A DNA stretch of 24,291 nt from UHGV virus genome UHGV-0018110. One strand, written 5' to 3'. Below the pieces are notes generated by a model. That model did no database searches. It saw nothing but the letters and a program-made list of their open reading frames with translations, and was not told the DNA's origin. Made by a program: the position numbers and the translations under genes. Below are positions 18,754-24,291 of this stretch, in pieces; position 1 is the stretch's first letter; each line of letters opens with the position of its first letter. Source of the stretch: a virus.

Positions 18754-19799
18754 TGGGTAAGCAAAAATCCCGCAAAGCCGCTGCGCAGAAGGCCAGCAAG
18801 CCACAACACCTGACCGCCAGCGCACCGCCAAAAACAACAGCTTTCACCTTCGGCGAGCCGGTGCCGGTACTCGATAAGCGCGACATTCTGGATTACGTCG
18901 AGTGCATCAGTAACGGCAAGTGGTACGAGCCGCCGGTCAGCTTCTCCGGGCTGGCAAAGAGCCTGCGCTCTGCTGTACATCACAGCTCACCGATTTACGT
19001 TAAGCGCAACGTGCTCGCGAGCACCTACATTCCGCACCCGTTGCTGTCCCGTCAGGATTTCAGCCGCTTTGCGCTCGACTATCTGGTATTCGGCAATGCC
19101 TTTCTTGAGCAGCGCCACAGCGTCACCGGCCAGTTAATCAAGCTGCTGGCCTCACCGGCCAAATACACCCGGCGCGGGGTCGACGATTCTATATTCTGGT
19201 TTGTGGAAAACTTCACTCTACCGCATGAGTTCGCGCCTGATACGGTGTTTCACCTGCTGGAGCCCGATATTAATCAGGAGATTTACGGCCTGCCCGAATA
19301 TCTCAGCGCGCTTAATTCTGCCTGGCTGAATGAATCCGCGACGCTGTTCCGCCGCAAGTATTACCAGAACGGCGCGCACGCGGGTTACATCATGTATGTG
19401 ACCGACCCGGCGCAGAGCGCGACCGACGTCGAATCGCTGCGCGAGGCGATGCGAAACTCGAAAGGGCTCGGCAACTTTAAGAACCTGTTTTTCTACGCTC
19501 CCGGCGGAAAACCGGACGGCATCAAAATCGTGCCACTGAGTGAGGTCGCCACAAAGGATGACTTTTTCAACATCAAGAAAGCCAGCGCCGCCGACCTGAT
19601 GGACGCGCACCGCGTACCGTTCCAGCTCATGGGCGGCAAGCCCGAGAATATCGGTTCGCTCGGTGACGTTGAGAAGGTGGCAAAAGTATTTGTGCGTAAC
19701 GAGCTGTCACCCCTGCAGGACAGGTTCAGGGAGGTAAACGACTGGCTCGGCATGGAGGTCATCAGGTTCAAAGAGTACACCCTCGACAACCCGGAATAA
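18753..19799 (+). CDS. Q: Portal (capsid) protein Q
   Basis: 348-aa ORF immediately after P and followed by a terminator and the cos site, as in P2/186. Confidence 0.9.
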   Translation: MGKQKSRKAAAQKASKPQHLTASAPPKTTAFTFGEPVPVLDKRDILDYVECISNGKWYEPPVSFSGLAKSLRSAVHHSSPIYVKRNVLASTYIPHPLLSRQDFSRFALDYLVFGNAFLEQRHSVTGQLIKLLASPAKYTRRGVDDSIFWFVENFTLPHEFAPDTVFHLLEPDINQEIYGLPEYLSALNSAWLNESATLFRRKYYQNGAHAGYIMYVTDPAQSATDVESLREAMRNSKGLGNFKNLFFYAPGGKPDGIKIVPLSEVATKDDFFNIKKASAADLMDAHRVPFQLMGGKPENIGSLGDVEKVAKVFVRNELSPLQDRFREVNDWLGMEVIRFKEYTLDNPE

Positions 19800-19807
19800 T
19801 CCCCCTC

Positions 19808-19832
19808 AAGCCGCCAGCATGGCGGCTTTTTC
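19808..19832 (+). terminator. Rho-independent terminator after Q
   Basis: Perfect 7-bp stem gccgcca-gca-tggcggc (19810-19826) followed by ttttt. Confidence 0.7.
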
Positions 19833-19975
19833 ATACCCCGCCACCATCACGCCTCAGATGCGCCACACGCGCACCACCACACCCGACCACCAACGAACCG
19901 ACAGCGACCACGACCGCGCCATCACGACGCGCTCAGACGATAATTTTTATTATTACGCACCACCGCTGGCGCGCA

Positions 19976-19994
19976 ATGCTTTCCCCGCCACGCC
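19976..19994 (-). other. cos site (19-nt cohesive end) of a P2/186-family phage
   Basis: The reverse complement of 19976-19994 is GGCGTGGCGGGGAAAGCAT, identical to the 186 cohesive end and two mismatches from P2 GGCGAGGCGGGGAAAGCAC as I recall them. Adjacent sequence (tgcgcgc.agcggtggtgc, cgtctgagcgcgtcgtga) also resembles the P2 left-end sequence. Confidence 0.6.
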
Positions 19995-20089
19995 TGCCCG
20001 CTTAACGGGTCGCTTTTAATGCAGGTGCATCAGGAGCCCCGAGCCGCGCCAGCGCTGGCGCTGGCTCACAAATTCTGGAATCAAAAACG

Positions 20090-20225
20090 CATGCAATTTA
20101 ATGCAAGATAATGCATTCAAATTGAGTTTATGATACTGATCGGTCAGTCATGCCTTCATTCTTAGGTTTGATATGGCACAGGCTACCTTGTAACAATTAG
20201 GGATTTTTCAAAAAGGTGACTACCC
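20090..20225 (+). promoter_or_regulatory. Putative promoter/operator region of the AT-rich three-gene operon
   Basis: AT-rich leader with three ATGCA motifs (atgcaattta atgcaagata atgcattc, 20091-20118), -10-like tatgat and taacaat candidates, and AAGGTGA about 7 nt before the ATG at 20226. Confidence 0.35.
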
Positions 20226-21284
20226 ATGGCAGGTGAAACTCAAAATATTTCAGCAATGGCGGAAAAGATATCTTCCGATTTATTTAAGTGGTTCAAGTGG
20301 GAGCTTGTTGGGGTAACCAATGAAAACTTTCAGTGTTTGAAGTCTACGCAACATAAAACAAAGTCTGGAACACACCCGACTGATGTTGTTTTTTCCTATA
20401 AGGATCCATACTTAAATCGGACGATTTTTTTAAATACAGATTTAAAAAGTTATGTAAAAGGGTCGATAACAGCAACCTCAATGCGAAACGCATTAGTCTC
20501 ATTGGCTAACTCTATTGATTGCGCAGAAGGTAGCAAGGAATGGAAGGATAGATACTCTTATCAAAGTGGCTCTTCTGAGGTTAGAGGAATGCTCTTTGTA
20601 TATAATCATGATGGTGAGTTTGACAGATCGTTCTATGATGTGTTTTATCAGTCTTATAATGCAGAAACTGATAAAACAAAACGGGGTATTAACCTTGATA
20701 ATATTCCTCTAAAACAAGGTCAGAAGATTCATATTATTGAGCCGAGAACTATAAATTATTTGCAATCAATAATTACGGACTTGTCTCAACTGAGTCACAA
20801 TCGAGAATTTCCTTTAGGTAAAAATTACCAGTTCTTTTACCCAGACCTATCACTTCATAAAGTTAGCGGGTCACCTGAAGAACACCCGGCAACAGTAGAG
20901 TTGTTAACGGGGCCTTTTTTGATAATTAAACACAACGATGTTAAACATTGTGATGAAGAAACTTTAGAGTGGAAAACAACCTATAAGCATGGTTATGTTA
21001 TTTATTACAATGGCGAGGGTAATAATGAATTAGAGTTTGTTTATATTCTTGATACGTTATCAAAATACCAACTCTTGGATGGAAATGAAAAGATAAGAAT
21101 TAGAATTGTACATCCAAGCATTTATAAAGATGTTCGCAGTATTTTTATGCGTGCTAAGGAAACATACTGTAGAGAATGGGGTTTCGATGAACATAAAAAA
21201 ACCATCATTGATGCCATTGATTTTCACCAAGTTGAATTTACAAAACCTCACTTCAGTTCTGTTGAGATTGGTTGGGAGCGATAA
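20226..21284 (+). CDS. Hypothetical protein, operon gene 1; possible PD-(D/E)xK-type nuclease motif near the N-terminus
   Basis: 352-aa ORF with good RBS and AT-rich codon usage. Residues around 50-74 read HPTDVVF...IFLNTDLKSY, a hPD...(D/E)xK-like arrangement. No family recognised. Confidence 0.7.
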   Translation: MAGETQNISAMAEKISSDLFKWFKWELVGVTNENFQCLKSTQHKTKSGTHPTDVVFSYKDPYLNRTIFLNTDLKSYVKGSITATSMRNALVSLANSIDCAEGSKEWKDRYSYQSGSSEVRGMLFVYNHDGEFDRSFYDVFYQSYNAETDKTKRGINLDNIPLKQGQKIHIIEPRTINYLQSIITDLSQLSHNREFPLGKNYQFFYPDLSLHKVSGSPEEHPATVELLTGPFLIIKHNDVKHCDEETLEWKTTYKHGYVIYYNGEGNNELEFVYILDTLSKYQLLDGNEKIRIRIVHPSIYKDVRSIFMRAKETYCREWGFDEHKKTIIDAIDFHQVEFTKPHFSSVEIGWER

Positions 21285-21286
21285 GT

Positions 21287-22411
21287 ATGAAAATCGGTTT
21301 GTATAGCGTTAATGACAAAGCTATGTTTGATGCTCTCAATCAAACAAAGGTGACTCATGAAGACATGAAAAGCCTTTTTTTCAAAAGAGGCACTATTATT
21401 TCTAAGGATACAAAACGGAAGACTTTAGCTTTGGATTTTTCGAAGAACTTCCACGGCTATTATGACTTTGAATATTTATCAGAAATTCTTGGATCTGTAG
21501 GGAGAAGAGAGAAAGTATCAATTAATATTGTCAACAGTGCAATTAGTTTAAGTGATATGGAAGTCACAATAAAATCTATATGTGAAGAATTACAAAAAGA
21601 GGGGGATGTAACAAATATCAATTACACCGAGAATGGATTTGAGGTGTCAGTAAAATATGTCAAGCTGGATTTTAAAATGAGCGAGTTTCGGCAATCCTCA
21701 TCTCGCGAGGCTAAAATACAAGTAGAGTTGAATGATGAGGGAGAGTATATTACGCGCTTCCCTCAGAATGCCAAGGCACATGAGTTTAATGAACTTTTGA
21801 TTAAAAAAATAAAAGAAACTAATAATGATGAGCCTGTAAGTCTTGAAGAGATATCGCTTGAAACGGTCAAAGATTCAAATGAACGTAGTCGTTTCTTTAA
21901 AGAACTGATCGTTAGTATGCCAAATTACAAATGTGTCGATGTGTCAGATGTTTATGTCACCCATCCAGTATTAGAGGTTAAAAAACCATCTGAATCTGAA
22001 GATGATGAAGATGACTCGGATGAGGATGATGATGCTGTAATAGACACTGGGTATCATATTTCAAAGGCATCATTGAAAGGAAGGGGTGTCCTTGAATCAC
22101 CAGAACTGGAAGAGTTATTGGGTAATGGGTTTTACATTACAAAGATAATATGGAGTTCGGTAGTCGAAGGTTTTAAAGACTCCGATAAGTATGAATTCGA
22201 AGCCCAGTTTGTGGATCCGGATAAATGTAAGCTGTTTTCTTATCTCGTTCGTGGATGTTATAAATATAAAAAAGTAAATGTGTTTACTAATCGGCAAAAT
22301 GTGGATAAGGAAAAAGAAAATGTGCTATTATTATCAATAGAAAAAACGGCTCGAGAAATCTCTAATAGAATAATATCTTTAAATACTCTCGAGGTAGTCA
22401 CTGAAAAATAA
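21287..22411 (+). CDS. Hypothetical protein, operon gene 2; contains a poly-acidic tract
   Basis: ATG 2 nt after the gene 1 stop with GGGAG upstream (the track ORF begins slightly earlier at a TTG); about 374 aa; tract SESEDDEDDSDEDDD at nt 21989-22033. No recognised motifs. Confidence 0.7.
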   Translation: MKIGLYSVNDKAMFDALNQTKVTHEDMKSLFFKRGTIISKDTKRKTLALDFSKNFHGYYDFEYLSEILGSVGRREKVSINIVNSAISLSDMEVTIKSICEELQKEGDVTNINYTENGFEVSVKYVKLDFKMSEFRQSSSREAKIQVELNDEGEYITRFPQNAKAHEFNELLIKKIKETNNDEPVSLEEISLETVKDSNERSRFFKELIVSMPNYKCVDVSDVYVTHPVLEVKKPSESEDDEDDSDEDDDAVIDTGYHISKASLKGRGVLESPELEELLGNGFYITKIIWSSVVEGFKDSDKYEFEAQFVDPDKCKLFSYLVRGCYKYKKVNVFTNRQNVDKEKENVLLLSIEKTAREISNRIISLNTLEVVTEK

Positions 22412-22422
22412 AAGGAGTTGTT

Positions 22423-23094
22423 ATGAAAACAAAATGGTTTACTGCCAACTTCCCTGCCGGTCTCGATAGGTTATACCAGGCCATCATAAACACGCCTTTT
22501 GACAGTGACAAAGGTTGGGGGTTTAGTATTCTTTCATATGAAGATAAGTATATATCTTCAAAATATATTGAAAGGGTTGAGGTAAGCGAAGTAATCATAG
22601 ACCCCTATGGTAATGAAACTGAGTTTAATCATTTCAAATATGTGCAGTTTAACTTTTGGTTTTTTAAAGCTCAAGGCGGTAACTTCATTTTAATAATTGA
22701 TTCTCCGCCTAGAAGTATCAAGGGTTTTATCTCCAATGTGATTAAGGCAACTGAATCCGATTTTAATGTTTCTTATCTTGTGATTCAAATTGATGAGTTT
22801 ATAAAATTTATCACGCCTCACTTCGAAAAGGTTCAGGTGCACAAGGCCAAATTAAAGGATTTGACTTTTAGTAAAAATACATCTGGCATTTTAGAACTTG
22901 AGTCTTCAAATGACGCGATAGATGAGATGAGAAATATTTTTAAAAATGCAAAATTCACGATTGATAAAGTTAAATTGAGTGTTAAATCTAACACTGGCAA
23001 TGAAACATTAGAAGTGAATTCCAATGGTTCTCTTAGCTTCTCAGAGGAGCTTTTTGATAAGATATTCTCTGCAGTTGAGCGTTTCACTTTCTAA
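22423..23094 (+). CDS. Hypothetical protein, operon gene 3
   Basis: 223-aa ORF with a canonical AAGGAG RBS 5 nt upstream, 11 nt after gene 2; AT-rich; followed by a terminator. No recognised motifs. Confidence 0.7.
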   Translation: MKTKWFTANFPAGLDRLYQAIINTPFDSDKGWGFSILSYEDKYISSKYIERVEVSEVIIDPYGNETEFNHFKYVQFNFWFFKAQGGNFILIIDSPPRSIKGFISNVIKATESDFNVSYLVIQIDEFIKFITPHFEKVQVHKAKLKDLTFSKNTSGILELESSNDAIDEMRNIFKNAKFTIDKVKLSVKSNTGNETLEVNSNGSLSFSEELFDKIFSAVERFTF

Positions 23095-23106
23095 GATAGA
23101 GTTGAA

Positions 23107-23142
23107 AAGCACTCTTAGTAAAATAAGGGTGCTTTTCATTTT
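23107..23142 (+). terminator. Rho-independent terminator of the three-gene operon
   Basis: Stem aagcactctta / taagggtgctt (one mismatch), loop gtaaaa, followed by ttcatttt. Confidence 0.5.
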
Positions 23143-23284
23143 AACTTTAAAAGTTTTTCGAAATCCGAAAGTGTTCGCGAGATTTGTTACCTCGTATTCA
23201 TTTTGATTAGCGAGTTTTTATCAAGGTCAATGCTCTTATAGGTATCGAAACCTGAGCCCGCATGTAATACCCGGAGCTTAAATT

Positions 23285-23467
23285 CTATTCGGCTTTATAG
23301 AAAATATCCGGGTCATCCTCAGCACTTTCACTGTTCGCTAAATCAGCAATAAGAGTGAGTGCGAGCTTAAGGTCTGACGGTTTGCAATTTGCAATCAGAG
23401 ACACCTCTGCAATGAATTGTACACAAGCCCACTTTTGCTGAGTTCGGCTGAAATGTTCGCCAACCAT
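23285..23467 (-). CDS. Small hypothetical protein downstream of a LexA box (candidate SOS-induced gene; tum/antirepressor-like position)
   Basis: 60-aa ORF with a strong SD (GGGAGGG 5 nt before ATG) and a consensus LexA box 22 nt upstream of the start codon; acidic C-terminus. No sequence identity to a known protein established. Confidence 0.4.
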   Translation of the reverse strand: MVGEHFSRTQQKWACVQFIAEVSLIANCKPSDLKLALTLIADLANSESAEDDPDIFYKAE

Positions 23468-23489
23468 GAAATCCCTCCCATAGAGTTTT

Positions 23490-23509
23490 TACTGTATGTT
23501 TGTACAGTA
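23490..23509. promoter_or_regulatory. LexA (SOS) box
   Basis: tACTGTatgtttgtACAGta: perfect CTGT-N8-ACAG palindrome with consensus-like TA flanks, in the gap between the A-like gene stop and the small ORF. Confidence 0.65.
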
Positions 23510-23583
23510 TCACGTATTGGCAAAAGATGGGAAGAAAAAAAACGAATAGGTCGATTGCCGTATGTGCATGATATGGATATGAA

Positions 23584-24291
23584 TTACTCATGTATTGGTT
23601 TTGATGCTTTAGCCATCACCGCAACACGATTAAGGATTTTCCGAGCTTTAGCCTCATGCGATGGCGCTGCGGAAAATATTTCTCCTTTGGCCGTTCCGCG
23701 TAGCCATTTGCCATCAAAACAACTTTTACCACCGGCCATCAGGTGCAGCGCTTCGCCCCGGCTGATTGTGATGCCGGTTGTCAGATGTATCTCGTCGATA
23801 GTTTTCGCTATAGCTGCGTTTTGCTCATCCGTTCCGTGGATAATTTTTCGCCGTGTTGCTGGCTTTTGCTTCCTTAGTCGGTTGGTCAACTCTCGTCTTT
23901 CACGCCGACTCAGAGGTTTTGTTAAATCCAGTATCGGTGGATCGCTTTCGCTTCCCGTACAGTTATTGACAGAACTCCGAGAGGGCGCAGGAGCGCCCTT
24001 AACGTCAACGGCCAAATCAACGGCACGCTTAGGCACAATTTTCCACTGCGTTAACCGGGTTAAAATAGGGGTACCAGCGCCGACAACAGAGTCGTAAACA
24101 CCACGGATACAGACGGTTTCCTCGCCATACTGATTAAAATCAGCGCGCGGTTCATACAGTGTGCGCACCTGCAAATCATCGCGACGGACAAACGGCCCAC
24201 CCTGCGCATTAACGTAACCAGCCCAGTCACCGGCGTCAGCGGCATCATGGACGGCGGCAAATTCAACGCTCAGACCGTGCGCGGTCTCGGT
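23584..24291 (-). CDS. A: Replication initiation protein (gpA-like), C-terminal part; ORF continues beyond the window edge
   Basis: Open minus-strand frame from the window edge to the stop at 23584 (236 codons, no stop); assigned mainly by position next to the cos-proximal accessory slot, as in P2/186; not confirmed by sequence recall. Confidence 0.45.
   Translation of the reverse strand, partial: TETAHGLSVEFAAVHDAADAGDWAGYVNAQGGPFVRRDDLQVRTLYEPRADFNQYGEETVCIRGVYDSVVGAGTPILTRLTQWKIVPKRAVDLAVDVKGAPAPSRSSVNNCTGSESDPPILDLTKPLSRRERRELTNRLRKQKPATRRKIIHGTDEQNAAIAKTIDEIHLTTGITISRGEALHLMAGGKSCFDGKWLRGTAKGEIFSAAPSHEAKARKILNRVAVMAKASKPIHE

Follow-up and report, generated by a model that had tools for sequence, protein, structure and literature searches.

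The stretch of viral DNA analysed here (UHGV-0018110; the window, 24,291 nt in all) ends in part of a phage replication gene, and just beyond the stop codon of that gene lies an open reading frame of 60 codons, opening with ATG, that converges on a low-GC cargo operon. What does so small a protein do for its prophage, and is it a working trigger of induction, a factor with some other task, or a relic? The earlier note on this DNA had described a perfect CTGT-N8-ACAG box upstream of the ORF, a strong Shine-Dalgarno sequence before its start codon, a position immediately after the replication gene and a convergent arrangement with the cargo operon, and had pointed out that tum, the SOS-inducible antirepressor gene of phage 186, occupies the same place. 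All of these statements hold (Table 1): the distance from box to ATG is exactly 22 nt, and the 186 record has p95, a LexA site and tum in the corresponding place after gene A. We consider it very probable that the ORF encodes the stand-alone Tum antirepressor of 186-like prophages, that it is expressed from a LexA-repressed equivalent of the p95 promoter, and that its product would inactivate CI and thereby bring about induction.

Table 1. Features of the tumA region, with positions counted from the first letter of the window
Feature	Position	Strand	Remarks
Low-GC three-gene cargo operon	20226..23094	+	352, 379 and 223 aa; convergent with tumA; outside the SOS module
Hairpin between an A-tract and a T-tract	23103..23138	.	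Likely bidirectional terminator, serving tumA and the cargo genes
tumA, 60-aa stand-alone Tum-type antirepressor (predicted; N-terminal half of 186 Tum)	23285..23467	-	Homology, profiles
Shine-Dalgarno sequence GGGAGGG	23473..23479	-	5 nt before the ATG; read from the sequence
LexA operator (SOS box) TACTGTATGTTTGTACAGTA	23490..23509	.	20 bp, perfect palindromic arms; predicted
p95-like promoter, predicted	23504..23533	-	-35 TTCCCA at 23528-23533, 18-nt spacer, -10 TACTGT at 23504-23509, inside the LexA box
Replication endonuclease gene, 3' end (homologue of P2 A and 186 A)	23584..24291	-	phrog_91, E = 4.8e-56; stop codon at 23584

Along the window, the 3' end of rplS comes first; an ogr-like gene, the genes for tail, lysis and head, those for terminase and portal, the cargo operon, tumA and the incomplete gene A follow in this order. 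The family to which gene A belongs, phrog_91, is annotated as 'nicking at origin of replication', and the gene is named 'replication endonuclease' in a near-identical E. coli prophage; tumA thus stands directly downstream of the rolling-circle replication gene, as it does in 186 and PSP3. Because the window starts in rplS, every complete E. coli genome matches it in part. Host sequence occupies positions 1 to about 230, with the result that one end of the prophage abuts rplS; yfiB borders the other end in a related prophage of E. coli MRSN346647, which places the element between yfiB and rplS. The prophage in MRSN346647 is the same one, with an overall identity of 95.5%, and across tumA and its box the two are 100% identical. 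The immunity region of the window prophage lies outside the window, and CI was seen in this relative, where the genes read int, DUF2511, CI (287 aa), orf, CII, Fil, B and onwards to A. The MRSN346647 repressor (L005:2478-3341, minus strand) has 84% identity to PSP3 CI and 30% to 186 CI; it combines two tandem Phage_CI_repr helix-turn-helix (HTH) domains with a 186-type C-terminal Phage_CI_C domain, whereas 186 CI (192 aa) has a single HTH domain. This fits a published description of PSP3 CI as longer than that of 186 (PMC3448106). The closest phage relatives of the window prophage are the Eganvirus members PSP3 and 186. Given the PSP3-type CI, CII and Fil in a prophage with an identical tumA region, the element is 186/PSP3-like (Eganvirus-type) and not P2-like, as the earlier note had proposed.

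When phage genomes were searched with the DNA of this region, it matched Salmonella phage PSP3, and the gene beneath the match was tumA. A homology search with the 60-aa product, which the note had recommended, gave the same answer: PSP3 TumA aligns with all 60 of 60 residues at 90% identity (tblastn, E = 2e-29). The description of the ORF as unrecognisable can be traced to phage 186, since pairwise BLASTP of the ORF against 186 Tum finds no match; for the same reason the connection to 186 Tum rests on profiles together with PSP3. The profiles do make this connection. The family phrog_1993 is matched by the window ORF (E = 2.7e-30), by PSP3 TumA (2.7e-32) and by residues 1-61 of 186 Tum (1e-22), and a profile of 31 homologues aligns with 186 Tum residues 14-45 over 32 columns (hhalign, E = 1.4e-4, 34% identity), with the motif C...D..(I/L)AL.LIA(E/D) common to both; the window ORF itself is about 30% identical to 186 Tum over some 32 residues. 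Judged by these matches, the ORF is tumA, a homologue of PSP3 TumA and hence of the N-terminal, antirepressor half of 186 Tum, which favours the antirepressor among the identities that the note had listed. 186 Tum is a fusion of an antirepressor half with a DinI half, in PSP3 the two halves are separate genes, and in the window only the first of them is found.

Scans of the ORF with Pfam, NCBIfam and PADLOC gave no match. In a large protein database the family comprises 207 clusters, almost all of 60-61 aa and several of them named TumA by UniRef, from Salmonella, Klebsiella, Enterobacter, Citrobacter, Cronobacter, Kosakonia, Pluralibacter and other genera. Its central block, WACVQFIAEVSLIANCKPSDLKLAL.LIADLA, is near-invariant, and the acidic C-terminal tail is variable. 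Compared with closer genomic relatives over the first 48 codons, dN/dS is 0.015-0.08, indicating strong purifying selection. In an AlphaFold model derived from the family alignment (pLDDT 71), two helices, 8-25 and 30-49, form a hairpin, and a disordered acidic tail follows. No similar solved structure emerged from the PDB: a sequence search with the family profile returned noise only (E above 1), and Foldseek with the model gave no match below E = 5, a result that is uninformative for so small a fold. Three further open reading frames of the region, 23367..23591 (-), 23395..23523 (-) and 23417..24097 (+), were rejected as genes; they are without homologues of their own and overlap the conserved frames of tumA and A.

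Is the box in front of tumA a genuine operator? The pattern CTGT-N8-ACAG occurs once in the window, as TACTGTATGTTTGTACAGTA. A bare 8-base core of this kind is not unusual by chance, with 0.28-0.36 occurrences expected per window and at least one found in 25 of 100 shuffles; the full palindrome TACTGT-N8-ACAGTA is rare, with about 0.001 expected from base composition. Scored, as the note had advised, against a LexA position weight matrix, which was symmetrised and, with about 20 E. coli sites behind it, is approximate, the box reaches 24.8 bits, above the training-site median of 20.8 and far from the 10.3 bits of the second-best position in the window. It agrees at 17 of 20 positions with the consensus TACTGTATATATATACAGTA, the three mismatches all falling in the spacer, and a single spacer base sets it apart from the annotated LexA site of 186 p95. 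It also conforms to the E. coli LexA-operator pattern TACTGT-N8-ACAGTA, AT-rich spacer included, and the host flank of the prophage is E. coli rplS. The strongest evidence comes from conservation. Related loci were collected from one-genome-per-species contigs, giving 28 loci from about 15 enterobacterial genera, to which PSP3, vB_EcoM-613R3 and 186 were added; CTGT-N8-ACAG stands 17-23 nt before the start codon in 28 of the 28 and in all three phages (at two Pantoea loci the tblastn match begins within the gene, the true ATG lying about 22 nt from the box). Its retention in every one of them speaks strongly against a product of chance. When 16 intergenic regions from different genera are aligned, TACTGT and ATACAGT do not vary, and the bases to either side of them drift. 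By homology to 186 and PSP3, LexA would be expected to bind at TACTGTATGTTTGTACAGTA.

The same alignments point to a promoter beneath the operator. In 186, p95 is annotated as TTCACA-18-TACTGT, its -10 hexamer being the left arm of the LexA site, and the corresponding region of the window aligns base for base with p95 and the annotated site. A block CTTC(A/C)CAT, matching the p95 -35 element TTCACA, is kept 18 nt upstream in the 16 aligned regions. A generic sigma-70 scan called no promoter in 22900-23700; it misses the p95-like promoter because the -10 hexamer matches at 3 of 6 positions only. We infer the promoter, then, purely from its alignment to 186 p95. LexA seated on the operator would occlude it. 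The Shine-Dalgarno sequence is kept as GGGAGGGA in most related loci. A separate element of about 21 nt, ATCCATATCATGCACATACGG, lies at about 23558-23578 on the minus strand, directly after the stop codon of gene A; it is kept in 186, in PSP3 and at loci of many genera while the intergenic DNA around it varies, and it terminates in a LexA-like half site, ATACAG, without a second half.

From these elements the following course of events can be proposed. In the lysogen, tumA would be kept silent by LexA on its operator, which overlaps the -10 hexamer. Upon DNA damage, activated RecA would promote the self-cleavage of LexA, the p95-like promoter would fire, and tumA would be transcribed and translated. 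The small, predicted two-helix TumA would then bind the prophage CI non-covalently and stoichiometrically and prevent it from binding its operators, and with CI blocked the early lytic promoter would be released and the prophage induced. That TumA would sequester CI is suggested by its homology to the proteins of 186 and PSP3. The LexA-Tum-CI pathway is established for 186 (PMC7708051; PMC3121763), where Tum binds CI and prevents it from binding its operators (Lemire et al. 2011, PMC3121763). A passage in the same paper describes tum as split by a stop codon in Fels-2 and PSP3, and mentions, as a personal communication, that the antirepressor activity of PSP3 resides in the upstream gene (PMC3121763). 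In the prophage DuoHS of E. coli HS, deletion of tum or a lexA(Ind-) allele abolishes induction by mitomycin C (PMC12055606); this shows that a protein of the Tum N-terminal type can by itself be the trigger, although the DuoHS protein is of another subfamily than the window TumA.

The closest counterpart is PSP3 TumA (AAN08399.1, AY135486), which has 60 aa, follows an A-type gene and shows the same layout of LexA box, ribosome-binding site and promoter; its record notes 'similar to 5' end 186 tum; UV induction of prophage'. In PSP3, however, tumB ('similar to dinI and 3' end of 186 tum') starts 3 nt after tumA and is followed by orf37 and orf38, whereas in the window tumA is followed by non-coding DNA, the hairpin and the convergent cargo operon, without tumB. 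The 186 protein (NP_052290.1) shares with the window ORF the position after gene A, with p95 and its LexA site annotated there, but it is 146 aa long, has a fused DinI-like C-terminal half (PF06183) and precedes orf97; its CI target also differs, with one HTH domain against two in the CI of the window-related prophage. The tum gene of DuoHS (ECHS_RS04495, L038:8120-8552), which was deleted in the Phollow study, resembles that of the window in being short (62 aa), stand-alone, placed after gene A and preceded by a LexA box. Unlike the window ORF, its product belongs to phrog_698, a separate DinI-like gene comes next, and the CI is of the shorter, 186-like type. BLASTP of the window ORF against DuoHS Tum gave no match, and the two are linked by profiles alone; the link from DuoHS Tum to phrog_1993 is weak (E = 0.002; hhalign E = 0.11). 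186 Tum itself matches phrog_1993, phrog_8554, phrog_698 and phrog_37919; both the window ORF and DuoHS Tum hit at least two of the three families named first, an overlap that hints at a larger superfamily of short antirepressors of the Tum-N kind. The same logic, in which a repressor that cannot be cleaved is inactivated through the binding of a small, LexA-repressed protein, is followed by GfoA and GftA of the Gifsy prophages and AntC of N15 (PMC3121763); unlike the window prophage these are lambdoid or N15 phages, and the likeness is one of logic. In the Gifsy operon dinI comes first and the antirepressor second (PMC3121763).

The neighbour of tumA on the other strand deserves separate consideration. 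The cargo genes, at 31-38% GC against 55-60% for the phage backbone, sit between the portal/cos end and tumA. They match the PADLOC families Hp1, Hp2 and Hp3 (PDLC03004-6; E = 3e-65, 6e-36 and 5e-8) as well as phrog_7059, phrog_6531 and phrog_5850, and have no Pfam domains; other E. coli genomes contain copies at about 76% identity, in which one gene is sometimes annotated as a PD-(D/E)XK nuclease. Because they sit where related loci differ in content, they probably represent candidate anti-phage defence cargo. The hairpin that separates them from tumA, about 150 nt past the tumA stop codon, has 15 pairs and was called by a terminator scan on the plus strand only, as the end of the cargo operon. 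It also folds in the minus-strand RNA, where it is followed by UUUUC, and the scan makes no minus-strand call because just four U follow the stem. The hairpin probably terminates both tumA and the cargo operon; we infer its function on the minus strand. Rfam contains no RNA family matching anything in 19700-24291.

This arrangement raises the possibility that, beside antirepression and not to its exclusion, SOS transcription from the tumA promoter lowers the expression of the cargo through interference or antisense RNA. The layout is convergent, with about 190 nt between the stop codons; with four U after the shared hairpin, termination on the minus strand may be leaky, and the 186 record gives t95a, the first terminator of p95, as partial. 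A 15-bp hairpin between the two units would nevertheless act on both strands, and the content and orientation of the downstream DNA vary among related loci, which argues against any conserved relationship, and we regard such damping as unlikely. Stronger still, and very unlikely in our estimation, is the version in which transcripts reading through a weak minus-strand terminator silence the prophage's own defence-candidate cargo at induction; if this were true, the awakening of the prophage would be coupled to the shut-down of its own defence.

There is also the view, left open by the earlier note, that the ORF encodes a different small SOS-induced factor, one that modulates RecA or the SOS response in the manner of DinI or regulates the cargo, and is no CI antirepressor. 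The lack of a Pfam or NCBIfam model, the PGAP label 'hypothetical' and the adjoining cargo genes would all be compatible with such a role. The ORF, however, is a TumA homologue that shows no similarity to DinI: the DinI domain of 186 Tum (PF06183, NF007893) comprises residues 72-146, the ORF matches residues 1-61, and tumB is absent, which disposes of the DinI-like option. As for regulation of the cargo, no positive evidence was found; tumA is found together with the backbone, namely gene A and the p95-like promoter, and is not tied to the cargo, since what lies downstream varies from one locus to another. A job other than antirepression is thus highly improbable.

What, finally, of the missing second half? 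A tblastn search with TumB found nothing downstream of tumA in the window. The downstream content of tumA differs at almost every related locus, and tumB is likewise missing from 19 of the approximately 26 loci with sufficient downstream sequence, about three quarters. With tumB so often missing and the downstream DNA so variable, a stand-alone tumA is the common state and no peculiarity of the window, and tumA is the last backbone gene before a variable cargo site. The window prophage would accordingly possess the trigger and lack the SOS-modulating DinI-like module. That the ORF is a dead remnant, a tum truncated by insertion of the cargo with its DinI half lost and its LexA box a fossil, is almost certainly wrong: the absence of TumB/DinI and the fact that PSP3-like homology ends exactly at the tumA stop codon, where low-GC cargo DNA begins, would fit such a history, but 60-61 aa is the norm of the family, TumB is missing from most comparable loci, purifying selection is strong, the start codon, ribosome-binding site and box are intact and conserved, and the upstream gene of PSP3 is reported, in the passage cited above, to act as antirepressor on its own.

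The stand-alone Tum antirepressor remains, for these reasons, the reading that we prefer, and it places the window in familiar territory. The tum family, its operator, its position and its role were described for 186 between 1989 and 1998, annotated in PSP3 in 2002 and taken up in later papers; public genomes already contain identical or near-identical sequences, there is no new biology here, and the only gap is one of annotation. RefSeq/PGAP gives the label 'hypothetical protein' to all 81 copies from complete E. coli genomes. With Pfam and NCBIfam lacking a model for the TumA family, a trigger of prophage induction is routinely missed. If TumA works as proposed, DNA-damaging antibiotics should mobilise this prophage and, with it, the cargo operon.
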